From Candidatus Bathyarchaeota archaeon ex4484_205 (GTDB lineage: Archaea > Thermoproteota > EX4484-205), in contig NJEE01000001.1 of the NCBI GenBank assembly GCA_002255045.1, forward strand, positions 1 through 44,128: a stretch of DNA of 44,128 nt, given 5' to 3'. The notes beneath the pieces were generated by a model, which saw only the letters and a program-made list of their open reading frames with translations, made no database searches and was not told the origin of the DNA. This document shows positions 7,321-41,044 of this stretch, one piece after another; position 1 is the stretch's first letter; each line of letters starts with the position of its first letter. The position numbers were made by a program, and so were the translations under genes.

Positions 7321-7967
7321 TGTATGTAATGGAGGATTTTACAGAACCACCAGAAGGGAAAATAGTAATTTTCGGTTTCCCAAGTTGGGGGAATGTAGGA
7401 CCCACGGTATGTGAGCAACTAGTTAAGTTTTCTGCGGCGAGGTATTTAGGTAGCATATATGCATCCCTATTCTCTGATTCGATTTTCACACAGGAAAGTG
7501 GATTCAGCGAGTTACCCTCAATAAAATTTTATCGCACGGAAAGAAGGATAGAAAAAGTGATAGTCGGAATAGGTAATTTTAAGATACTGAGGGAGAACCC
7601 AGAAGCTCATACCCTATGTGAATATCTCATCAAACTTGCAGAAAGATTCAGATGGAAAATGATAATAGGTGTAGAAAGTATAATGTCAGGAGATGGGGAG
7701 CATAGCGTAATTTTAACGAATAAAGAACTAATTAAGATGCTTCCAAAACATGTCACCGTTATGCAGGAAAAAAGTATGAAGAGTCTATTGGGAACCCTTT
7801 TAGGATTGTGTAGAATTAACAGAATAGATGGAATTGGAATATTTGCATCTTCTGAGAAATTACTTGCAAAGGAAAATACCATCATTAGTACTTTTAGGAC
7901 ATTACTTTACATACTTCACTCAGTCCTATCTATGGAGGAAAGTGAAACCAGTCAAAGGAGGGGTTAA
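7308..7967 (+). CDS. PAC2-family protein (proteasome assembly chaperone-like)
   Basis: 219 aa. The N-terminal IVIFGFPSWGNVGPTVCEQLVK resembles the GFPGxGxVG block of archaeal PAC2 proteins. Assignment is tentative. Confidence 0.4.
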   Translation: MREVMYVMEDFTEPPEGKIVIFGFPSWGNVGPTVCEQLVKFSAARYLGSIYASLFSDSIFTQESGFSELPSIKFYRTERRIEKVIVGIGNFKILRENPEAHTLCEYLIKLAERFRWKMIIGVESIMSGDGEHSVILTNKELIKMLPKHVTVMQEKSMKSLLGTLLGLCRINRIDGIGIFASSEKLLAKENTIISTFRTLLYILHSVLSMEESETSQRRG

Positions 7968-9273
7968 AGCCTCTCCATTTCTTTGAGTCGAAGACATATC
8001 TTTTCATAGGTTTAGACAGATGTCTATGAGCACGAGGAGGAGGAAGATATATACCTGGCTCTAAATCTCTTTTAACAGTTACTACGTCAGGAGCATATGA
8101 TATCGCACCACATTTCTTACAGATATAACCTTGATGAAGTCCTCTGGAGGTCATTCTTATACCACAGTTTACACATAAGGGTGGTCTACGAACATACTTT
8201 CTTGTAAGATAGTTAACTTCTAGTTTTTCAAGATTTAGTATATAGGAATTAGAATATCTATCTTGCTGAACCCCTCCATAACAAGAGACTACATCCTCCT
8301 CCTTTAACTTTAAAACCACTTCTCGAAAGCTTCCGGTTGGCTCATATGCAGCACATTTTATTTCCCCACTATGATCCGACAATTCAAAGAATACATGGCC
8401 ACCCTTATATATCTGAGGTTTCTGAGTAATTTTCCCTCTTATAAAAACAGATTGATATAACTGAAGGGAGGAGATCGGGACAGGATGCGTGGGAAGATGT
8501 ACCCCAGTCCCTTGATTGCTTCTGAAAATAACCCAAGAATCGATTGGCTCTTCTACCTTAATAAAATGGAGAGACTTCAAAACTGCGGAGGGAGACTCCC
8601 CTCTAACACCAAATAACACAGGATCTGGGCCGTGTGGAGCTATGAGAACACGTTTAGTTTCAGGATCTACGTTATTAAAGGTTTGAGAGCTGCAAGCCTT
8701 ATCCATCTCAAGTACGGAGAGCGTGTTAATTTTCCGTGGTTTACCCCAATTTTCTCTTTTACGATACGCTATGAGCTCATATGTATGATCTTCAAGTAGA
8801 AGAGAGCCAATTGCCGACACACCACCAACAATGCCACGGATGGAACGATAATAGTGGATGAAAGAACAATACTGTGAAACTTGGCTATAAATATAGCGGG
8901 GATTTAGAGGATATCTTAACGCGGCCATATATATCTCTGCAAATACTTGAGGGATCTCACCTTCAAGCGCTATTAGTATGGGATCCGAATGAGGCAAACC
9001 TTCTTTCACGATAGAGTCGAAAAATTTTGTAATTCTTTTATAAAAAGTTTTCAAATTTTGTATTTTTAGTTCAAATCTCAGGCAAACTGCAGCATTTCCA
9101 CGCGTTTTCCATGGAATATTTGGATTAAGACGAATAAGCAGAGGATAATCTTGAAAAACTACATTATAATTATCTATAAGATACTTGAGAAGTCGCCCTG
9201 CAACATAGGTAGTACAACCTCCTTTATGGGAATCTGTGTCATCTAGGGCAAGATGAAGAAGAATCATTCTCAC
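7930..9273 (-). CDS. tiaS: tRNA(Ile2) 2-agmatinylcytidine synthetase
   Basis: 447 aa. N-terminal LHLALDDTDSHKGGCTTYV, a central OB-like region and a C-terminal zinc ribbon CVNCGIRMTSRG...YICKKCG. Confidence 0.8.
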   Translation of the reverse strand: MRMILLHLALDDTDSHKGGCTTYVAGRLLKYLIDNYNVVFQDYPLLIRLNPNIPWKTRGNAAVCLRFELKIQNLKTFYKRITKFFDSIVKEGLPHSDPILIALEGEIPQVFAEIYMAALRYPLNPRYIYSQVSQYCSFIHYYRSIRGIVGGVSAIGSLLLEDHTYELIAYRKRENWGKPRKINTLSVLEMDKACSSQTFNNVDPETKRVLIAPHGPDPVLFGVRGESPSAVLKSLHFIKVEEPIDSWVIFRSNQGTGVHLPTHPVPISSLQLYQSVFIRGKITQKPQIYKGGHVFFELSDHSGEIKCAAYEPTGSFREVVLKLKEEDVVSCYGGVQQDRYSNSYILNLEKLEVNYLTRKYVRRPPLCVNCGIRMTSRGLHQGYICKKCGAISYAPDVVTVKRDLEPGIYLPPPRAHRHLSKPMKRYVFDSKKWRGFNPSFDWFHFPP

Positions 9274-9285
9274 TCACCTCTTTTT

Positions 9286-9426
9286 TGGTAGCGGGGGGTG
9301 GAATTTCAGGCAAAGCCTTTTGAACCACCGCTTGAGGGATTGAACCTATCTCAGGGTCTCTCCTTCATTATGAGCCCTGCGGGTTATCCGAATTATAGTC
9401 TTTAGACCTGGCTACCCCACCCCGCT
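9286..9426 (-). tRNA. initiator tRNA-Met(CAU) with four inferred insertions (D-loop, 37/38, variable loop, T-loop 59/60); CCA encoded
   Basis: Minus strand: AGCGGGG TG GGGT [29-nt D-loop region] ACCC G CAGGG CTCATA[ATGAAGGAGAG]A CCCTG [22-nt variable region] GGTGG TTCAAA[AGGCTTTGCCTGAAAT]T CCACC CCCCGCT A CCA. The A1:U72 pair and three G:C pairs closing the anticodon stem are archaeal initiator hallmarks. Confidence 0.8.
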
Positions 9427-9502
9427 ACAATTATTTGTAGTATGTAAGTTGGGATATAAACTTTAACATTAGATGTCAGGGCTTCGATTTCTGAGGGAAA
9501 GT

Positions 9503-9510
9503 TTTATATT
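9503..9510 (+). promoter_or_regulatory. TATA-box-like element upstream of the wHTH/NurA/HerA operon
   Basis: TTTTATAT lies about 30 nt upstream of the TTG start at 9539, which is compatible with a near-leaderless transcript. Confidence 0.4.
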
Positions 9511-9532
9511 TACGTTTACGTTTACGTTTACG
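9509..9532 (+). repeat. perfect tandem hexamer (TTTACG)x4 ending in the palindrome TTTACGTAAA
   Basis: Read directly from the sequence. It lies between the TATA-like box and the first start codon of the operon. Confidence 0.9.
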
Positions 9533-9538
9533 TAAAAG

Positions 9539-17304: not shown

Positions 17305-17399
17305 TGGGCCGGGCCGGACTTGAACCGGCGACCTCCCGGTTATCAGCCGGGTGCTCTAACCTTCAGCGTGACAATCTCACTATGCTAAGCTACCGGCCC
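17305..17399 (-). tRNA. tRNA-Ile(GAU) with one ~20-nt D-loop insertion
   Basis: Minus strand: GGGCCGG TA GCTT AGC[ATAGTGAGATTGTCACGCTGAA]GGTTA GAGC A CCCGG CTGATAA CCGGG AGGTC GCCGG TTCAAGT CCGGC CCGGCCC A. Confidence 0.8.
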
Positions 17400-19530: not shown

Positions 19531-19711
19531 GGGGCCGTCGTCTAAACGAAAGGGATAGCCAGGTAGGACGGCGGGCTCCAGCCACTATTGAAGGGTTCGC
19601 TGACTAAGTGGATGAAGAATGGTTGGAGCTCGGGAGGAACCCGTAGGTGTAAAAGCCGGGGAAATGTGAGCGTTCAAAGGGCTTTGCCTGGAAGTCGCTC
19701 CGGCCCCACCA
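19531..19711 (+). tRNA. tRNA-Trp(CCA) with four inferred insertions, including a 57-nt 37/38 intron; CCA encoded
   Basis: GGGGCCG TC GTCT [22-nt D-loop region] GGAC G GCGGG CTCCAG[57 nt, 19582-19638]A CCCGT [23-nt variable region] GAGCG TTCAAA[GGGCTTTGCCTGGAAG]T CGCTC CGGCCCC A CCA. Confidence 0.8.
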
Positions 19712-19760
19712 TGAAAACCTTTAATTTCTTTACAGAAAATAAAATAATAGGTGACCCTTA

Positions 19761-20006
19761 TTGACTAAACATGCGTTTGTATTAATAAATGTAGATATAG
19801 GAACAGAGAAGGAAATACTGAGTGAATTAAAGAAAATACCATATATCAAGGAGGCCTGGATGGTGTATGGTGTTTACGACATGGTTGTTAAAATAGAGGC
19901 AGATTCATTGGAGCAGGTGAAGGAAGCTATAAGCAGTAACATTAGGAAGCTGGAAGGGGTGAGAAACACGTTGACCTTGATTCCCATTGAGGGATTTACC
20001 TCTTAG
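19761..20006 (+). CDS. stand-alone Lrp/AsnC ligand-binding (RAM) domain protein
   Basis: 81 aa. AFVLINVDIGTEKEIL...AWMVYGVYDMVVKIEADSLEQV...VRNTLTLI. Confidence 0.6.
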   Translation: MTKHAFVLINVDIGTEKEILSELKKIPYIKEAWMVYGVYDMVVKIEADSLEQVKEAISSNIRKLEGVRNTLTLIPIEGFTS

Positions 20007-20065
20007 ATTTTTTCTGATAATATTAAAATTCAAATATTCTCACGTAGATGAAGATTCGTTAAAGG

Positions 20066-20434
20066 ATGCCAAGTATTTCCCCCAGGAAGATGCGACGACT
20101 ACAAGATAGAATGCTTAAGAAGATGGGATTGGCAATGGAAGAACTCTCTGATGTAGATAAAGTTATCATTCTCACTTCTTCCAAACGTATTGAAATACTG
20201 AATCCTACAGTAACGAAGTTTGTACTTCAACAGGGTCAGGACATTTACCAGGTGATTGGAACTACAAAGATAGAGGAAATAGAAGAAGTTGAAGAAATAG
20301 AAATACCAGAGGAAGATATAATGTTAGTCTCACAGCAGGTAGGATGTGACTATGAAACAGCGAAGAAAGCTCTAGAGAGCACGGGAGGAGATATTGCACA
20401 GGCGATTCTATTACTTAAAAGAAGACCGGTCTAA
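20066..20434 (+). CDS. nac: nascent polypeptide-associated complex protein (archaeal NAC alpha homolog with UBA domain)
   Basis: 122 aa. NAC beta-barrel region followed by the C-terminal UBA-like IMLVSQQVGCDYETAKKALESTGGDIAQAILLL. Confidence 0.8.
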   Translation: MPSISPRKMRRLQDRMLKKMGLAMEELSDVDKVIILTSSKRIEILNPTVTKFVLQQGQDIYQVIGTTKIEEIEEVEEIEIPEEDIMLVSQQVGCDYETAKKALESTGGDIAQAILLLKRRPV

Positions 20435-20908
20435 ACCTTTACGGACCTTTACGGCAACACCTCTCTTGAAAAATCTTGCTTCCCGAGGTGATAAGAGAAG
20501 CTTGCCTACAGCGAGTAGAGAATCATTTTCATCCACTACTATGACCTCATCTCCGGAACGTAGAAGCATATCTACTTCGAGCACATACTTTGCAAAGACA
20601 TTCCTCCCTTTTCGTATATACTTACTTACAGAAGAAGGAACAATAACTCTATGACGGGGTTTACTAAATGTTTGTCTCAAGAGTTCACCACCCGCTATAC
20701 TAAGAGAGAAAAGACCTGTAGAGGGCACTAGGGTAGCTATCAATCTTTCGGTCTCAGTATAGAGCCGACGTATCTTACCATTCTTCCCTCTTTCCACACT
20801 TCCTAGAGATTTCAAAACCTTGGAGCCGAACCCGAAACCAAATTGATAATCCAGGAGGTCCTTAATATAGAGTTTTTCTAATATAGTGATACTTGAACAA
20901 TTAGCCAA
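20411..20908 (-). CDS. PUA-domain RNA-binding protein
   Basis: 165 aa. The C-terminal VFAKYVLEVDMLLRSGDEVIVVDENDSLLAVGKLLLS...GVAVKVRKG is a typical PUA fold pattern. Confidence 0.6.
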   Translation of the reverse strand: MANCSSITILEKLYIKDLLDYQFGFGFGSKVLKSLGSVERGKNGKIRRLYTETERLIATLVPSTGLFSLSIAGGELLRQTFSKPRHRVIVPSSVSKYIRKGRNVFAKYVLEVDMLLRSGDEVIVVDENDSLLAVGKLLLSPREARFFKRGVAVKVRKGLDRSSFK

Positions 20909-20949
20909 ACCTATTTATTCAATATGTGAGGAAGTAAATATTTAGATTT

Positions 20950-21432
20950 ATGAACTGTGAAATATGTGGATCACCAATATATGGAAAAGCTAAAAAAGTG
21001 TTGATAGATGGCGTACCAATGCTGGTATGTCAGGCATGTGCAAATCTTTCTTCAACGGAGATAGTTGAGAAGAAAACTACAGAAGGGAGAAGAGTATACC
21101 AAAGAAGAAGACTCATTAAAAAGGTAGGGGAGAAGAAGACTTTCTGGAACGATGATCTGACGTTAATAGATAACTATGGAGAAAGAATAAGGATGGCGAG
21201 AGAAGAAATGGGAATGACCTTAGAAGAGTTAAGCCGTAAATCAGGGTTAAAAGTGAGCTATCTTAGAAATATAGAAAACCAGAGGATGAAACCCACCTTG
21301 GGAGAGAGCCGAATTTTGGAGCATATACTTGATATCGCAATACTCACAAAAACGCCGGAGTATGGAGATAAACAAAGAACGAAAGTTCGAAGAGATGGAT
21401 TAACATTAAGTGATATATTGAGAATGAAGTGA
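20950..21432 (+). CDS. archaeal MBF1-type transcription factor (zinc ribbon + Cro/C1 HTH)
   Basis: 160 aa. CEICGSPIYG...LVCQAC is followed by IRMAREEMGMTLEELSRKSGLKVSYLRNIE. Confidence 0.8.
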   Translation: MNCEICGSPIYGKAKKVLIDGVPMLVCQACANLSSTEIVEKKTTEGRRVYQRRRLIKKVGEKKTFWNDDLTLIDNYGERIRMAREEMGMTLEELSRKSGLKVSYLRNIENQRMKPTLGESRILEHILDIAILTKTPEYGDKQRTKVRRDGLTLSDILRMK

Positions 21433-22025
21433 AGAAAATAATAGATCAGATGACTGAGATATACGTACTTCGAATGGGGCATAGGTACATACGTGATCTG
21501 AGAATCTCCACACATTGTGGATTGGTTGCCTGGGCACTAGGAGCTAAGGGAATACTCTTCACGGGTATGTATGATAAAGAAATGATGAAGAAATTGAGAG
21601 AAACTGTAGAGAGGTGGGGTGGAGAATTTGAGATAGGATATGTTGAGAATTGGAGGGAATATATTCTTGAAGAAAGAAGAAGAGGAACATATATTATCCA
21701 TCTAACCATGTATGGAATAAATATACCAACCGTAGAGAAGGCTCTCCAGAAAATTCTGAGATGGAAGAGAATATTAGTAATTATAGGGGCTGAGAAGATG
21801 CCTCGGGAAGTATATTTACTGGCACACCTCAATGTAGCTATAAAGAATGTGCCACACTCAGAGGTTGCAGCATTATCCATCTTTATGGATAGAATTACAA
21901 ATGGGAAGGCGCTTCTAGAATATCCAGAACATATGAAGATAAAAATAATCCCACAAATCAGGGGAAAAGTTATAGAGAGAGGAGAACCCAAATATATAGA
22001 GGGAGACATCAATAGGGAAGTTTGA
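21429..22025 (+). CDS. tRNA (cytidine56-2'-O)-methyltransferase
   Basis: 198 aa. YVLRMGHRYIRDLRISTHCGLVAWALGAKG matches the aTrm56 N-terminal block. SPOUT-type C-terminal region. Confidence 0.7.
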   Translation: MKKIIDQMTEIYVLRMGHRYIRDLRISTHCGLVAWALGAKGILFTGMYDKEMMKKLRETVERWGGEFEIGYVENWREYILEERRRGTYIIHLTMYGINIPTVEKALQKILRWKRILVIIGAEKMPREVYLLAHLNVAIKNVPHSEVAALSIFMDRITNGKALLEYPEHMKIKIIPQIRGKVIERGEPKYIEGDINREV

Positions 22026-22029
22026 TAGA

Positions 22030-22575
22030 ATGAAAGTATCTGAAGAGCTTTATTTGAAGGTTGCAGCACTCGTAGGAGGGGATGATGCTATTGGTGTTGT
22101 TTCTGCTTTACTAGATTTGAAAAAAGCCTCAGATGAGGAGATTGCAAACAGAACAGGTCTCAGACTCCCTAATGTTAGAAAAGTGCTTTACAAATTGTTG
22201 GACTCTTCTTTAGTTGCATTTGAGGAAAGAAGAGAGAGAATGGAACAGACAGTTTTCTATTGGTATCCTCTACCAGAGCAAGTATACGGATTTATTCAAA
22301 CAGAAGAGAGAAACCTAATTAAGAGACTTAAAGCTAAATTCAATTACCTTAGATCACATGAATTTTATCATTGTGGAACCCCCACTTGTAGGAGGCTGAC
22401 TTTCGAGGAAGCCGTAGAGACATTATTTAAGTGTCCAACTTGTGGAAAACCTCTCAACAGAGTTGATGTTACAGATATTATAGAAGCGATAGAAGGGAGA
22501 ATTGAAACCATACAGAGAGAATTGAAAGAGTCCTTCGGAGTACCCATCAAAACATTAAAATCTCGGAGAAAATAA
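22030..22575 (+). CDS. tfe: transcription factor E (TFIIE-alpha homolog)
   Basis: 181 aa. A winged helix (EEIANRTGLRLPNVRKVLYKLLDSSLV) plus a zinc ribbon (HCGTPTC...CPTCGKPL). Confidence 0.8.
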   Translation: MKVSEELYLKVAALVGGDDAIGVVSALLDLKKASDEEIANRTGLRLPNVRKVLYKLLDSSLVAFEERRERMEQTVFYWYPLPEQVYGFIQTEERNLIKRLKAKFNYLRSHEFYHCGTPTCRRLTFEEAVETLFKCPTCGKPLNRVDVTDIIEAIEGRIETIQRELKESFGVPIKTLKSRRK

Positions 22576-22588
22576 AAACTATAAATGG

Positions 22589-22689
22589 GCCGAGGTACCC
22601 TAGCCATACAACACTAGAAAGGTAGGGGGCAAGCCTGCTAAGCTTGTGCCCGTAAGGGCTCGCGGGTTCAAATCCCGCCCTCGGCGCCA
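22589..22689 (+). tRNA. tRNA-Ser(GCU), class II, with one ~13-nt D-loop insertion; CCA encoded
   Basis: GCCGAGG TA CCC TAGCC[ATACAACACTAGA]AAGGTA GGG.. CAAGC CTGCTAA GCTTG TGCCCGTAAGGGCTC GCGGG TTCAAAT CCCGC CCTCGGC G CCA. Confidence 0.8.
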
Positions 22690-24044: not shown

Positions 24045-24172
24045 GGGGGCGTGGGCTAGAGAAATCGGCCAATCTGGTCTATGCTTCGTGGCTTGGGCCC
24101 TCCTATTAGGTGAGAACCCACGAGGTCCCAGGTTCAAAAGGCGATAGCCTGAGAATCCTGGCGCCCCCACCA
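24045..24172 (+). tRNA. tRNA-Pro(UGG) with three inferred introns (D-loop, 37/38, T-loop 59/60); CCA encoded
   Basis: GGGGGCG TG GGCT AG[AGAAATCGGCCAAT]CTGGTCTA TGCT T CGTGG CTTGGG[CCCTCCTATTAGGTGAGAA]C CCACG AGGTC CCAGG TTCAAA[AGGCGATAGCCTGAGAA]T CCTGG CGCCCCC A CCA. Confidence 0.8.
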
Positions 24173-24342: not shown

Positions 24343-24499
24343 TGCCGGAGGCGGGATTTGAACCCGCGACTTCTGGACAGGTAGTTTTCCAGATTTCTCA
24401 TGCCCCCGATTATGAGTGACGCTACAACTTGTTCTGGCGCTCTAGTCTAAGGGGGCTATCTAACCAGGTTGCTCTCTGGTTGATCTGAGCTACTCCGGC
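24343..24499 (-). tRNA. elongator-type tRNA(CAU) (Met, or Ile2 before agmatidine formation) with five inferred 16-18-nt insertions
   Basis: Minus strand: GCCGGAG TA GCTC AG[ATCAACCAGAGAGCAA]CCTGGTTA[GATAGCCCCCTTAGACTA]GAGC G CCAGA[ACAAGTTGTAGCGTCA]CTCATAA[TCGGGGGCATGAGAAA]TCTGG[AAAACTACCTGTCCAG]AAGTC GCGGG TTCAAAT CCCGC CTCCGGC A. Confidence 0.75.
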
Positions 24500-28349: not shown

Positions 28350-28449
28350 AGCCCCGGGCGGGGTTTGAACCCGCGACCTCCGCCTCTTCAGAGAATACCA
28401 AGGCGTTGCTCCACCAGGTTCCTCGCATTATGCTCTGAGCTACCGGGGC
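28350..28449 (-). tRNA. tRNA-Thr(GGU) with two inferred introns (D-loop 16 nt, anticodon loop 10 nt)
   Basis: Minus strand: GCCCCGG TA GCTC AG[AGCATAATGCGAGGAA]CCTGGTG GAGC A ACGCC TTGGTA[TTCTCTGAAG]A GGCGG AGGTC GCGGG TTCAAAC CCCGC CCGGGGC T. The 27:43 pair is an A/G mismatch. Confidence 0.75.
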
Positions 28450-36215: not shown

Positions 36216-37688
36216 ATGGAGAGAGGAAAAGGAGGGGAGGACTTCATACAGAATATTACGAGAAGGTATCCGGTAATTTTTACGTATGGTGCCATCAAAC
36301 TTATCGAAGAAAAAGGTCTTGAGGAAGCAACAATAGAAAATATTGTTTCAAATTGTATAGAAAATGGTATAAAAATAATTTCAGAGAAAGATATAGAAAG
36401 AAGAATCCACACTAAAAGAATATTTCAAAGTATAAAGACATTTACTCCGAAGGCAAAAGAGTTAGCAGAGAATCTGCAAATAGAACTAAGTCTCGACGAT
36501 AAGAACATTACAAAACCATCGGATAGTATCGAGAACAACATAAAAGCACTTCGAGACCGATATAGAAAGATTTATTCCATTTTAAGGAAGAGAATTCCGA
36601 GAGGATTATATGAGATTTCAGATTTGAAGAAGATTGAAGATGGAAAAACTGGATATATTGTTGGTATGGTGCTCACCATAGTTAAAGGTAAGAGAATATT
36701 GGTAGAAGATCCTACAGACAATTGTGATATCATAATTTCCGAAAGAATTTTGAATAGAGGTAATAGAGAGAAGTTAAAATTTGTTACTAAGGATGCTGTT
36801 CTCGGTTTTCAGATACTAAAGAAATGGGGTAAGGTTTTCTATAAAGATGTAATATTTCCAGAGTTTGAAGAACCACCTAATGAGGGGAAAGATGAGGAAG
36901 TTGCAGTACTGTTGACATCTGATCTACATGTAGGTAGCAAGTATTTCAATAGAAAAAAGTTCGAGATCTTGATCGAATGGCTGAAGGGGAGGAGAGGAAG
37001 AGAAGAGTTAGCTGGGAAAGTAAAATATATCATAATTGCAGGAGATCTGGTAGATGGCATAGGTATTTACCCCTCACAACGATTTGAATTATCAATTACA
37101 GATCTTCATAGGCAGTACCAGAATGTGGCCGAGATCCTCTCGGCCATACCTGACTATATATCTATAATTATAATTCCTGGAAATCATGATGCAACGTATA
37201 GAGAGATTCCACAACCTCCAATCTTCAAGGAGTTCAGGGAAGTTTTCGATGGACTTCCAATAAAATTTCTGAGCAACCCTGCTATTGTAAGAATTTTTGG
37301 CAAACGTTTTCTTATAGAACATGGAGAAGTGTTAGAGAGTGTAAGTAATAATCTAGAGAATGTGAGCCATAATGAACCAGCAAGATTGATGCTTCATTTC
37401 CTAAGGCTGAGAAACTTTGCTCCAATCTCAGAAGGAAGAATCATGGTGAACATACAACCTAATGACCTATTCACTATATTAGCCGTTCCTAATGTTTTCC
37501 ATATGGGCCATATCCATGTTTATGGATATGAAAAATACCGAAATGTACATATTATTAATAGTGGAACTTGGCAGGAAATGACTCCTTACCAAGAAAGGTT
37601 AGGACTACAACCCACTCCAGGGATTTTTGGAGTATTTGATTTTACTAAAGGACGGATACACAATCTTTCTATTGGTGAGGTATCTTAA
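36216..37688 (+). CDS. DNA polymerase D small subunit (DP1, Mre11-like phosphoesterase)
   Basis: 490 aa. LTSDLHVGSKYF, IIAGDLVDGIGIYP, IIPGNHDA and GHIHV. Confidence 0.9.
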   Translation: MERGKGGEDFIQNITRRYPVIFTYGAIKLIEEKGLEEATIENIVSNCIENGIKIISEKDIERRIHTKRIFQSIKTFTPKAKELAENLQIELSLDDKNITKPSDSIENNIKALRDRYRKIYSILRKRIPRGLYEISDLKKIEDGKTGYIVGMVLTIVKGKRILVEDPTDNCDIIISERILNRGNREKLKFVTKDAVLGFQILKKWGKVFYKDVIFPEFEEPPNEGKDEEVAVLLTSDLHVGSKYFNRKKFEILIEWLKGRRGREELAGKVKYIIIAGDLVDGIGIYPSQRFELSITDLHRQYQNVAEILSAIPDYISIIIIPGNHDATYREIPQPPIFKEFREVFDGLPIKFLSNPAIVRIFGKRFLIEHGEVLESVSNNLENVSHNEPARLMLHFLRLRNFAPISEGRIMVNIQPNDLFTILAVPNVFHMGHIHVYGYEKYRNVHIINSGTWQEMTPYQERLGLQPTPGIFGVFDFTKGRIHNLSIGEVS

Positions 37689-37690
37689 GG

Positions 37691-40600
37691 TTAGAAATAC
37701 TGCGTCAATCGTTTCTGTTTTCCCTCAGAATGATAGAGAAGTAGAGCAGATTCCTTTTTCAAGAGATCTATATACTGTTTATAGTAATTCGATAAATTAA
37801 AATTGTTAACTAAAAACTCTGCAATCTTAAGATATTTTATAACAGACTTGCTGTACACACGTCTTACTAATTCACCGCCACAATTGGGACATCGACCAGA
37901 GAGAGTGGGACGAGAGAGGTTTAAACCACAGTATTTACACCTCACAGAATTACTATAGAAAGCCCTGAGGTTTCCTGCAATGTCACGCAGGATATGGGAA
38001 TCAAGAATTCTTTCTACAATTTTATCAATAGGGAAATTGTTCAATGTTTTCATTATAGAGAGCTGTAACTCAAGTTTTTTCTGAATGGAGAATTCCCTAT
38101 ATGAGCTTCTTAAAACACCTTTTTGTATAGAGGAAGTGGAATGTGTGGCAAATATCTTAAAGAAATAGGAATCAGAAAGTAGCGAACGTCCCACGGTATT
38201 TATTCGAGCCAAGGGGGCAGAATCCTCTTTCATAGTAGAATTGTAGAAATCACAACTTAGGGTAGCTTCATTTTCCATATTATATACTTGATCATCGATT
38301 TCATGAGGATTAAGAATTGGAAATAGAAGAATGGGAGAATCCATCATCCCACCTGGTCTTTCAGGCAAGAAGTGTCTAGAGAAATTGAGAAAGACATCCA
38401 TAAGAAGAATGATTGAATCAGCGTCACCATCACAATCCCTTCTTTTAGCTTGATGCCAGAATGGATGGGCAAATATAACTTCACAATCAGTAAATCCAAT
38501 TATCCTTCCTATAATGCCCCCATATGTATGAGGAGAGATGCCTATAACCAGATGGCCAATTAGGTCCTTGGGTTCATTTAGATTATAAAATGAGTCAACG
38601 TGGTAAACATATTTCAAAAGTGAGTCCAGGAATTTTGATACCTTAACTAAATACTCTGCAGCACTTTTAGGGATAATTATGTCCTGTGGATAAAGGAATA
38701 TTTCCTGTCCTTCAGACTCTATGGGATTACCATATATATCTCTACGGTAACCAAGCTCTAGAGCAGTTCTAATGTCTATACCTATTTCTGAAGGTTTAAA
38801 AGAGGTTAGGGGGGCATTAGATGCCTCGAACCGGGTAGTACCATCACGAAAGACGAATAGATCAAATAAAGCTCTCAAAATCCCTTTAACAGGATGTTCA
38901 GGTAGACGTTCAGGATTCATTAAAGACTTAACGCCCTTAATAACCTTAGGAGGCGATAATATGTTGACCATTTTGGCAGAGCGTTCTAGGAGGGATTTAA
39001 GATCTATGTTTCTGGGCATATAGGGAAGAAGCTTTGCACCACACACATTACATACACCACCTTGAATGTTTCTTTTATGGCAGTTAGGACAATAATACAA
39101 AGGAATTGTTTCACTTTTACATGTTTCACAATATCGAAAGAAGGTAGTTGACTTGCAATTTTTGCAATATCTATAAGCCAGATCTACAATTAGAATTCTT
39201 TCTTTGAAGGCTTTCATCAAATCTCTTGAAGGACCACCTTTTAAACCAACTGGAAACAAAGTATGAACAGGAGGATTAAGTTTTCTAGGTTTAGCTGCCT
39301 CTGGACGGCCCATTCGTGCACCTACATATACCCCGATAGTGTCTCTAAGTAAGATACCTGAAGATTTAGAGAGAATCTCAAGAACATCATCATAACCAGT
39401 ATCTAATGGATTTCTAAATAAATAGACAAGAACGAGAGAATATGGATAATCAATTACAATTTCTTTGTTTTTTGACAATTTGTGGGGGATGCATAACTTT
39501 TCTAAAATTTTTTTGATTCGATGATCAATGAGTATAATGTGATTGTCTTCTTTCCGGGAATTCTTAATAGCTTTTGACAGGATGATAAGTTCATTTTTGG
39601 ATATATTTCTCCAAAAGAAGGTATAATAAGGATGTAGAGGAATATGATAAGTCCTTGAGAGATGTATTGCTTCTTCAGGAGATGGACGGCTATAAAAAGG
39701 GTCTTTAATATACCTCATTATATCCTCATCAAAGGATTTATGAGTTTTTTTAAGTGCAGATTTAAGATCTTCTACCCACCACTCTTCCACATAAGGGGAT
39801 GGAGGAACACGCATATTATTCTCGATGAAATCGCCTAGGGAAATCAAGATATCTCCCAAGAAAAGTATTTTTTCTATGTTCTTCTCAATGGCCTCCGCCA
39901 TCGAGATATCTTCAACACGAAGAACGGAGCCATCTTTCAACAACACTACAGGAGGATGAATAGTATCAACGGACATAACTATGGCAGATTTAGATGGTTT
40001 ACTCAACCGCAACTGAGTTCCAATTGCGAGAAAGGATTTTGTGAGAAACATGGTACAGGGATGAATACCTACAGAGGCAAGACCTGTATTTCTACATCTT
40101 CCCAGACGGATTCTGAAACCTCCAAAATTTTCCACAGAGAAAACAGGCCGGCCTATTACGACTTGATCCAAGTAACTTTCCTTGACCTTTGATTCTACAC
40201 GTATGGAATTCAACCATTCCCATCCATCAAATTTGAGTAAAGAAACATAATTCATCACCTTTCTTGCTCTCCCGATAATTCCATCATTCACAACTCTGAG
40301 GGCTCCACCCCTCACCTGATTGGTCTCGATACGAGGCAGATCACGGTAAAGCGATACCTCAATGGGATCAGTTTCATGACCAGTAACCTCGATAGGTATA
40401 TTCTGCAATGTAAATCTCAGTTCTTCATCTCTAATTTTATATTGGAAACGTCCTACATCACGTTCATAAAGGCGAAGCTCCTCTATAAACCGATATATTT
40501 CATCTCGAGTGGGGATATAACGATTCAATCCAAGCTTTCTTCGAATATAATCAGCTAGGAGAACTGCAACAGCTTGCTCAGTTCCTCCAGCAGACCTCAT

Positions 40601-41044
40601 GGGTCCTGCAAAATATACTGCAAGATATTCTGAACCATCCAGATTCCTTTTTATCCTAACTTCTACAATACCCTCTATAGGAGCAGAGGTTGTGCCAGGT
40701 GGAGTTAATACTGCGAGGCCCGCCCTAATCGCCAAAAGTGCAGCTTTCTCCCTTGACATAGCTCCAAGACTGTCTTCAATGATTTTCTCTGCCAATTTGA
40801 AGGCCAACAGTGGATTTGAGTATTCTTCTGATAGTTTTTGAATAGTTTTAGAGAGGGAGGGGAGGCCTATAAGTTTCTCTATAGCCTCAGCGTGAGAATA
40901 TACAACAAGACTTTCTATTTCCTCTTCAGGATCTATTCGAGCTTTTTTCGCTTGGCTTGCGACTCTCAGACATTCCTCGAATTTATTTAATAGAATATCG
41001 TGATATGATTTGAGTAATTCATCATGTGACATGGAACTCACCAT
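37691..41044 (-). CDS. DNA polymerase D large subunit (DP2), no obvious intein
   Basis: 1117 aa. N-terminal AKKARIDPEEEIE, zinc clusters CKNCKS...CETC / CPNC...CNVCG / CKYCG...CPNCGG, and KRRDCDGDADS. Confidence 0.9.
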   Translation of the reverse strand: MVSSMSHDELLKSYHDILLNKFEECLRVASQAKKARIDPEEEIESLVVYSHAEAIEKLIGLPSLSKTIQKLSEEYSNPLLAFKLAEKIIEDSLGAMSREKAALLAIRAGLAVLTPPGTTSAPIEGIVEVRIKRNLDGSEYLAVYFAGPMRSAGGTEQAVAVLLADYIRRKLGLNRYIPTRDEIYRFIEELRLYERDVGRFQYKIRDEELRFTLQNIPIEVTGHETDPIEVSLYRDLPRIETNQVRGGALRVVNDGIIGRARKVMNYVSLLKFDGWEWLNSIRVESKVKESYLDQVVIGRPVFSVENFGGFRIRLGRCRNTGLASVGIHPCTMFLTKSFLAIGTQLRLSKPSKSAIVMSVDTIHPPVVLLKDGSVLRVEDISMAEAIEKNIEKILFLGDILISLGDFIENNMRVPPSPYVEEWWVEDLKSALKKTHKSFDEDIMRYIKDPFYSRPSPEEAIHLSRTYHIPLHPYYTFFWRNISKNELIILSKAIKNSRKEDNHIILIDHRIKKILEKLCIPHKLSKNKEIVIDYPYSLVLVYLFRNPLDTGYDDVLEILSKSSGILLRDTIGVYVGARMGRPEAAKPRKLNPPVHTLFPVGLKGGPSRDLMKAFKERILIVDLAYRYCKNCKSTTFFRYCETCKSETIPLYYCPNCHKRNIQGGVCNVCGAKLLPYMPRNIDLKSLLERSAKMVNILSPPKVIKGVKSLMNPERLPEHPVKGILRALFDLFVFRDGTTRFEASNAPLTSFKPSEIGIDIRTALELGYRRDIYGNPIESEGQEIFLYPQDIIIPKSAAEYLVKVSKFLDSLLKYVYHVDSFYNLNEPKDLIGHLVIGISPHTYGGIIGRIIGFTDCEVIFAHPFWHQAKRRDCDGDADSIILLMDVFLNFSRHFLPERPGGMMDSPILLFPILNPHEIDDQVYNMENEATLSCDFYNSTMKEDSAPLARINTVGRSLLSDSYFFKIFATHSTSSIQKGVLRSSYREFSIQKKLELQLSIMKTLNNFPIDKIVERILDSHILRDIAGNLRAFYSNSVRCKYCGLNLSRPTLSGRCPNCGGELVRRVYSKSVIKYLKIAEFLVNNFNLSNYYKQYIDLLKKESALLLYHSEGKQKRLTQYF

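Follow-up and report, generated by a model that had tools for sequence, protein, structure and literature searches.

A predicted initiator tRNA gene with four introns in a Bathyarchaeia-like archaeon rich in tRNA introns

The archaeal splicing endonuclease recognizes a helix of 4 bp with a 3-nt bulge on either side (the BHB motif), and for introns at position 37/38 the register is such that the first two anticodon bases lie within the central helix and the cut falls after position 37 (PMC4090602). Known archaeal tRNA introns measure 11-129 nt (PMC4090602), and three introns are given as the maximum per archaeal tRNA gene (PMC4033280; tRNAscan-SE 2.0 paper, PMC8450103). Multi-intron tRNA genes have been described in the Thermoproteales (Sugahara et al. 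2008, as summarized in PMC4033280 and PMC8450103), where short introns at canonical and non-canonical positions carry BHB or relaxed BHB motifs, are spliced by an endonuclease of broad specificity and resemble one another between genes, a similarity attributed to intron transposition (PMC4033280). More recently, 92-95% of the tRNA genes of the Asgard lineages Atabeyarchaeia and Freyarchaeia were reported to contain introns, over half of them several (Valentin-Alvarado et al. 2024, PMC11291895); Supplementary Data 4 of that study lists four-intron Freyarchaeia genes for Arg-TCT and Ile2-CAT as well as an initiator with three introns. Outside the archaea, nuclear tRNA genes of the red alga Cyanidioschyzon merolae contain as many as three BHB introns, located at 37/38 and in the D arm and T-loop; their removal is sequential, in an order tied to motif stability (PMC3728597). 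Finally, the initiator tRNA of Thermofilum pendens (Chan et al. 2011, as cited in PMC4090602) is an essential, single-purpose initiator that relies on BHB processing of a circularly permuted gene.

The window analysed here, i.e., the whole stretch of 44,128 nt, carries a 141-nt gene which, with a probability of roughly 0.88, we read from its sequence as a functional archaeal initiator tRNA-Met gene split by short introns at positions 22/23, 37/38, 47/48 and 59/60. Its mechanism is the known one, its intron count lies at the top of the known range, and its structure is shared in variant form with undescribed MAG genes. Like the genes of the Thermoproteales, as far as these are summarized in the articles cited above, it combines short introns at canonical and non-canonical positions with BHB or relaxed BHB motifs, the enzyme being predicted here from the motifs, and it shares similar introns with another tRNA gene, namely the T-loop introns of iMet and Trp (13/16). 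It differs in holding four introns where those summaries give a maximum of three, and in its host, which encodes PolD and is not a member of the Thermoprotei. The Asgard case concerns another phylum and an initiator with three introns rather than four, while its four-intron genes appear only in a supplementary table. In terms of intron density, 2.2 introns per tRNA gene in these 44 kb compare with 1.5 in Pyrobaculum calidifontis and with approximately 1.8 in the Asgard genomes, the latter being an estimate from 228 reported introns that assumes roughly 124 genes. C. merolae has similar intron positions, but is a eukaryote with some permuted genes and none with four introns, and in contrast to the permuted T. 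pendens initiator, the gene described here is collinear with four cis-introns. Full-text searches returned no paper on four-intron initiator tRNAs or on Bathyarchaeota tRNA introns.

Removal of the four inserts (Table 1) leaves a product of 79 nt (76+3), which ARAGORN recognizes as a perfect cloverleaf tRNA-Met(cat). The acceptor strands AGCGGGG/CCCCGCU give A1:U72 with discriminator A, the anticodon arm becomes CAGGG-CUCAUAA-CCCUG once the 11-nt insert is taken out, and the spliced molecule further shows G11:C24, G29-G31:C39-C41, a 5-nt variable loop AGAUC and the T-loop UUCAAAU. Archaeal initiators are marked by A1:U72, G11:C24 and an anticodon stem closed by three consecutive G:C pairs, and all of these, together with CAU, are present in the spliced sequence. 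Hence, the hallmarks named in the preliminary description of this DNA (A1:U72, the GGG/CCC closure, CAU and an encoded CCA) can be read directly from the spliced sequence. The insert sizes given there were likewise borne out: removal of an 11-nt insertion after position 37 rebuilds the anticodon arm, the 22 nt between anticodon and T stems shrink to the 5-nt AGAUC, and the 16-nt T-loop insertion at 59/60 is exact at 9303-9318. Its D-loop region of 29 nt is also correct, while the mature D-loop measures 11 nt instead of the proposed approximately 10. The exons have a GC content of 62%, compared with 40% for the introns and 38% for the whole window.

Table 1 Features of the initiator tRNA locus and of the other tRNA genes in the window (numbering of the window; a single number is the gene position as listed)
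Feature	Position	Strand	Description	Sequence
Initiator tRNA-Met(CAU) gene (iMet)	9286..9426	-	141 nt with encoded CCA; five exons, four predicted introns	
Exon 1	9402..9426	-	tRNA positions 1-22: acceptor 5' strand, D-stem 5' strand, D-loop AGCCAGGUCUA, A22	AGCGGGGUGGGGUAGCCAGGUCUAA
Intron 1	9384..9401	-	18 nt, position 22/23 (D arm), gene positions 26-43	AGACUAUAAUUCGGAUAA
Exon 2	9369..9383	-	tRNA positions 23-37: D-stem 3' strand, G26, anticodon-stem 5' strand CAGGG, loop CUCAUA with CAU anticodon	CCCGCAGGGCUCAUA
Intron 2	9358..9368	-	11 nt, canonical position 37/38, gene positions 59-69	AUGAAGGAGAG
Exon 3	9348..9357	-	tRNA positions 38-47: A38, anticodon-stem 3' strand CCCUG, variable-loop AGAU	ACCCUGAGAU
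Intron 3	9331..9347	-	17 nt, position 47/48 (variable loop), gene positions 80-96	AGGUUCAAUCCCUCAAG
Exon 4	9319..9330	-	tRNA positions 48-59: C48, T-stem 5' strand GGUGG, T-loop UUCAAA	CGGUGGUUCAAA
Intron 4	9303..9318	-	16 nt, position 59/60 (T-loop), gene positions 109-124	AGGCUUUGCCUGAAAU
Exon 5	9286..9302	-	tRNA positions 60-76: U60, T-stem 3' strand CCACC, acceptor 3' strand CCCCGCU, discriminator A, CCA	UCCACCCCCCGCUACCA
TATA-like box	9454..9460	-	TTTATAT, preceded by AAAG	
tiaS	7930-9267	-	Pfam TiaS domains; start behind GAGGUGA	
DP1 and DP2	36216-41044		DNA polymerase D subunits	
tRNA-Thr-CGU	6273		1 intron	
tRNA-Ile-GAU	17305-17399	-	1 intron (20-nt, D-loop)	
tRNA-Trp(CCA)	19531-19708	+	178 nt; 4 introns: D arm 13 nt, 37/38 57 nt, variable region 17 nt, T-loop 16 nt	
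tRNA-Ser-GCU	22589-22686	+	1 intron (14-nt, D-loop)	
tRNA-Val	22691		0 introns	
tRNA-Ala-CGC	22809		1 intron	
tRNA-Pro-UGG	24045-24169	+	3 introns: D arm, 37/38, T-loop	
tRNA-Thr-UGU	24211		2 introns	
CAU tRNA (elongator Met or Ile2)	24343-24499	-	157 nt; probably 5 introns, gene positions 16-31, 41-58, 67-82, 90-105, 114-129 (two D arm, one 30/31, one 37/38, one 45/46)	
tRNA-Thr-GGU	28350-28449	-	2 introns	

As the anticodon is CAU and the adjoining gene encodes TiaS, a modifier of tRNA-Ile2, the gene might alternatively be taken for an elongator tRNA-Met or a tRNA-Ile2(CAU). Against this speaks the archaeal initiator signature with A1:U72, G11:C24 and the three anticodon-stem G:C pairs. Moreover, its 5' 20 nt are common to the initiator-type genes of at least about 120 archaeal genomes, and a separate CAU tRNA gene is present in the window, which has G1:C72 and an anticodon stem CCAGA/UCUGG without the GGG/CCC pairs. 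An elongator or Ile2 identity therefore has very little probability left, and the claim that the 141-nt gene is the sole initiator-type tRNA of the window stands. Beyond the window, no second initiator-type tRNA was found in the further DNA fetched from the same organism.

For an assessment of the splice motifs, all cut pairs in the initiator gene were scanned with a register rule derived from PMC4090602, in which a stretch of four exon bases pairs with a stretch of four intron bases, each stopping 2 nt short of its cut, the 5' cut for the exon and the 3' cut for the intron, and strict hBHBh' motifs were separated from relaxed classes as defined in PMC7714728. The four junctions, whose BHB scoring had been proposed along with the initial description, each carry a BHB-type motif in the right register. 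The best motif of the gene belongs to the T-loop intron, a strict hBHBh' with the 5-bp T stem as outer helix, a central helix UUCA/UGAA, an inner helix GGC/GCC and the bulges AA|A and AU|U. The variable-loop intron is likewise strict, with central UGAG/CUCA, inner GG/CC, outer C40C41/G49G50 and the bulges AU|A and AG|C. In the D arm, the motif is relaxed and HBh'-like, as the central helix GUCU/GGAU includes two G-U pairs, with 2 bp in the inner and 1 bp in the outer helix, next to the bulges AA|A and AA|C. The 37/38 intron displays a relaxed, hBH/BHL-like motif composed of the 5-bp anticodon stem, a central CUC/GAG with an A35-G mismatch and the bulge AG|A, while an inner helix is missing. 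Expressed as central/outer/inner base pairs, this amounts to 4/5/3 for the T-loop, 4/2/2 for the variable loop, 4/1/2 for the D arm and 3/5/0 for the anticodon loop. When the introns were shuffled (20,000 shuffles each), a motif at least as good appeared with a frequency of about 0.001 for the T-loop, 0.003 for the variable-loop, 0.005 for the D-arm and 0.25 for the 37/38 intron. Taken alone, the 37/38 motif is thus no better than chance (p ~0.25); for this putative intron, support comes from its canonical position and from look-alikes in other genes of the window and in relatives.

The boundaries of the D intron, as well as those of the last two introns in the second CAU tRNA gene, were set by hand with the BHB register after automatic spliced alignment. 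Three alternative placements of the D intron, with cuts 1-3 nt further 5', yield an identical product, and the register places it between A22 and C23. Other D-arm cuts with good helices (17|35, 19|33 and 15|40) were rejected, as they leave D-loops that lack G18G19 or are overlong compared with those of relatives. A group I or group II intron was discarded as well, since the inserts of 11-18 nt contrast with a ribozyme core of hundreds of nucleotides, and no Rfam intron model matched in the region.

It could further be argued that fewer than four introns are present and that some of the additional nucleotides are kept in the mature tRNA, as a larger D-loop or a long variable arm. Indeed, the MFE fold of the precursor pairs the 5' side of the D-stem with the variable insert, and the 22-nt variable region, which contains the T-loop-like GGUUCAAUCC, is able to fold into a small hairpin. 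In relatives whose exons are the same, however, the variable loop is the 5-nt AGAUC and the D-loop measures 11 nt, the strict hBHBh' of the variable insert sits exactly at 47/48, and the T-loop-like motif is missing from the homologous intron of the relatives. Initiator tRNAs are class I tRNAs, which counts against a long variable arm, and to our knowledge a D-loop of 29 nt is without precedent. Overall, a mature tRNA retaining such inserts is very improbable, slightly less so than an elongator or Ile2 identity.

With four introns in place, the 141-nt precursor would be transcribed from a TATA-box promoter, and at each exon-intron boundary a BHB motif, a 4-bp helix between two 3-nt bulges, would fold. 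The archaeal tRNA splicing endonuclease would then cut past the second nucleotide of each bulge, an RtcB-type ligase would join the exons, and RNase P would trim the 5' end, the CCA being already encoded. Since the motifs in D arm and anticodon loop are relaxed, the enzyme should be of broad specificity, that is of the (alpha-beta)2 or epsilon2 type, which, according to PMC5829648, are the only endonucleases that cut non-canonical introns. Among the genes of the window and of loci L001 and L176, no endonuclease domain was found. Calculations with ViennaRNA on the primary transcript and every splicing intermediate revealed that forcing the central and inner helices costs 2.3-5.8 kcal/mol over the MFE, ranging from 2.3 kcal/mol for the T-loop motif to 5.8 kcal/mol for the D-arm motif. 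If the outer helix of the variable-loop motif is forced in addition, the cost amounts to 10-14 kcal/mol, as this motif rivals the anticodon and T stems. It borrows bases of both stems, so that the precursor must refold between cuts, while a fixed splicing order is not supported by the predicted energies.

Upstream of the gene, 27 nt separate the end of the TATA-like box from the mature 5' end, and the box would serve as promoter of the initiator gene; A/T-rich TATA-like boxes are likewise present about 25-35 nt upstream of several further tRNA genes in the window, Met-CAU and Thr-GGU being the clearest cases. The divergent intergenic region also holds four tandem TTACGT repeats at 9510-9533, which on the minus strand places them about 85-105 nt ahead of the iMet 5' end. 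Downstream, the tiaS gene starts 19 nt after the initiator gene, and no T-tract follows the initiator CCA. Its product is TiaS, the tRNA-Ile2 agmatidine synthetase. Owing to the 19-nt gap without a T-tract, initiator and tiaS may be co-transcribed. A tiaS gene lies within approximately 1-2 kb of an initiator gene in eight other archaeal loci (L030, L036, L057, L070, L076, L082, L088, L130), where order and orientation vary. The nearest homologues of the window's TiaS are 44-48% identical and labelled Bathyarchaeia or Thermoproteota, and the window additionally encodes both subunits of DNA polymerase D and the archaeal SRP RNA. Based on PolD and the TiaS affinity, the host is assigned to a deep Bathyarchaeia-like lineage and not to the Thermoproteales.

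As the window stems from uncultured material, an assembly or chimera artefact of the metagenome has to be considered. Five assemblies from different samples, however, carry the tRNA-TiaS locus with 100% identity, and the initiator locus is also identical in a sixth assembly (L154), a strain whose flanking positions differ by 0.6%; the other tRNA genes of the window are identical in L176, L178 and L179. Because the locus recurs identically in six independent metagenome assemblies, obtained from different samples and pipelines, misassembly is excluded, which makes an artefact the least credible of the alternatives. The source samples, from hot-spring or sediment communities, include those behind ERZ23491052, ERZ2433807, SRR6301444 and JGI 3300005099. 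When GTDB genomes were scanned with the 5'-exon pattern, at least 120 loci were obtained, and most initiator-type genes among the matches listed measure 74-76 nt. The corresponding metagenome scan gave 47 matches, 44 of which were irrelevant, as CCCGCWG also fits the 3' anticodon stem of intronless genes; its gains were L154, as another copy of the locus, and L162 (Ga0180301_10008490), an unrelated initiator gene of 110 nt from a different organism with a 34-nt D-loop intron of different sequence. Several further hits deserve a brief mention. L074 (Micrarchaeota, CAZOKY010000085.1) is a 178-nt initiator gene which, by eye, apparently has three introns (anticodon stem, variable region and T-loop). 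The IMG/VR contigs L006-L008, classed as viral, all contain an archaeal initiator-tRNA 5' sequence; in L007, a search over 600 nt revealed no 3' acceptor strand that would match it. The contig L076 (DASPWZ010000026.1), labelled 'Candidatus Dormiibacterota bacterium', encodes both a TiaS homologue and an initiator tRNA of archaeal type with two introns and is probably a mis-binned Bathyarchaeota contig.

Compared with its Bathyarchaeota MAG relatives, the mature initiator is identical at 74 of 76 positions with both differences in loops, a match that chance cannot explain. Among the matches listed, six Bathyarchaeota genes (L022, L025, L120, L057, L036, L076) have introns at 47/48 and 59/60. 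Two of these (L036 and L076) contain no more than this pair, whereas L057 has three introns and the remaining three genes have four, with an intron at 29/30 added; the 37/38 intron, 12-18 nt in length, occurs in four of the six (L057, L022, L025, L120). Hence, the uniqueness implied in the preliminary description was overstated, as initiator genes with four introns are present in three public MAGs of Bathyarchaeota at least: L022 (CAWHWX010000017.1), L025 (MEMY01000017.1, archaeon RBG_16_50_20) and L120 (CAZRDM010000036.1), for which full-text searches retrieved no describing paper. With the window gene, these three share 74/76 mature positions, the sites 37/38, 47/48 and 59/60, and the intron ends CUCA-RR|C and YGRR-NN|U. 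They differ in intron sequence and in the fourth intron, which interrupts the anticodon stem at 29/30 instead of the D arm at 22/23; for the latter intron, no counterpart was found in relatives among the matches listed. Across these genes, central helices are kept throughout, and the inner helices (GG/CC, GAGC/GCUC, CUCGA/UCGAG or GGUCGA/UCGAUC) differ in sequence while pairing is retained in all. Furthermore, an exon change from G57 to A57, the base found in the window, is offset by a C to U change in the intron, turning G57-C into A57-U, an exon-intron covariation as expected of functional BHB motifs.

Such conservation also bears on the assumption that the gene is a decaying or silent copy, its inserts being unspliced debris and a normal initiator gene being located elsewhere in the genome. 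While the weak 37/38 motif would be in line with decay, the exons are intact and match those of relatives at 74/76 positions with both differences in loops, removal of each insert restores the cloverleaf, and each insert lies in BHB register. In addition, the architecture is conserved in other species, the TATA-like box is present, and ten other tRNA genes of the window are built alike and would all have to be pseudogenes. A decaying copy is thus unlikely, even though it is the most probable of the alternatives considered. For the functional four-intron gene, we infer that it is transcribed, spliced and the sole initiator, in which case translation initiation would depend on four splicing events.

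Standard tools overlook this gene. ARAGORN misses it in unspliced form whether or not intron mode is used, and when the threshold was lowered in addition to setting intron options, the program reported nothing, or a spurious tRNA-Leu, at the initiator locus; the Rfam tRNA model has no match in the region, neither at gathering thresholds nor at E<=10. The variable-loop intron (9331-9347) contains, in GGUUCAAUCC, a near-consensus T-arm sequence that its homologue in the relatives does not have and that may confuse tRNA finders; it could be a relic or a coincidence. In the whole window, ARAGORN finds 2 tRNAs only. A search of the window for acceptor stems and T arm uncovered four further tRNA genes missed by standard tools, so that at least four genes besides the initiator, three of them multi-intron, escape ARAGORN and the Rfam tRNA CM. 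Trp belongs to these missed genes, tRNA-Pro(UGG) and tRNA-Ser(GCU) are detected by neither ARAGORN nor the Rfam tRNA model, and the second CAU gene is missed by both in unspliced form, while its spliced 75-mer is scored as a perfect tRNA-Met by ARAGORN. The gene at 17305-17399, called tRNA-Phe(GAA) by ARAGORN, is actually tRNA-Ile(GAU) with a D-loop intron, and Rfam matches only model positions 10-63 of it. At 19622-22689, ARAGORN in intron mode also proposes a tRNA-Ala with an intron of 2977 nt, which is spurious. As a consequence, MAGs of this lineage would seem to be without initiator tRNA, tRNA-Trp, tRNA-Pro, tRNA-Ser and tRNA-Met, which distorts completeness and codon-usage inferences.

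In total, the window holds 11 tRNA genes with 24 BHB introns, nearly all with 4/4 central pairs; 20 of these introns reside in the ten other tRNA genes, in the register of the initiator gene. Introns of 10-14 nt at 37/38 without an inner helix recur in Thr-CGU, Ala and Thr-GGU, and D-arm introns with a weak outer helix in six other genes of the window. Hence, the two relaxed motifs of the initiator are the norm for this genome. The CAU tRNA gene at 24343-24499 appears to contain even five BHB introns, with 4, 4, 3, 4 and 4 of 4 central pairs, and is identical in three other assemblies; full-text literature searches yielded no published five-intron tRNA gene. The initiator gene might reflect a cis-encoded tRNA set richer in introns than any described to date, a proposition to which we give slightly less than even odds. 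If this is true genome-wide and the four-intron gene is the sole initiator, each round of initiation would need four endonuclease-ligase cycles, and the organism's endonuclease would rank among the most permissive known. With four introns in an initiator gene, and probably five in a neighbouring one, the published limit of three per archaeal tRNA gene is raised, and the intron-rich lineages now include a Bathyarchaeia-like group. Combining four different BHB grades in one 141-nt RNA, the locus is a compact natural substrate that would lend itself to studies of endonuclease specificity, of the order of splicing and of intron gain by transposition.

With regard to the latter, the T-loop introns at 59/60 are alike in iMet (AGGCUUUGCCUGAAAU), Trp (GGGCUUUGCCUGGAAG, 19679-19694) and Pro (AGGCGAUAGCCUGAGAA, 24139-24155), 13 of 16 positions being identical between iMet (9303-9318) and Trp, which suggests that one T-loop intron has spread among the three genes. 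The 57-nt intron of Trp contains GUGGAUGAAGA and CUGA, resembling C'/D' boxes; a C/D-box sRNA was considered for this intron and dismissed, as the Rfam C/D match is insignificant (E=2.6). The 37/38 intron of Thr(GGU), at gene positions 55-64, measures only 10 nt and thus falls below the range of 11-129 nt given in PMC4090602.
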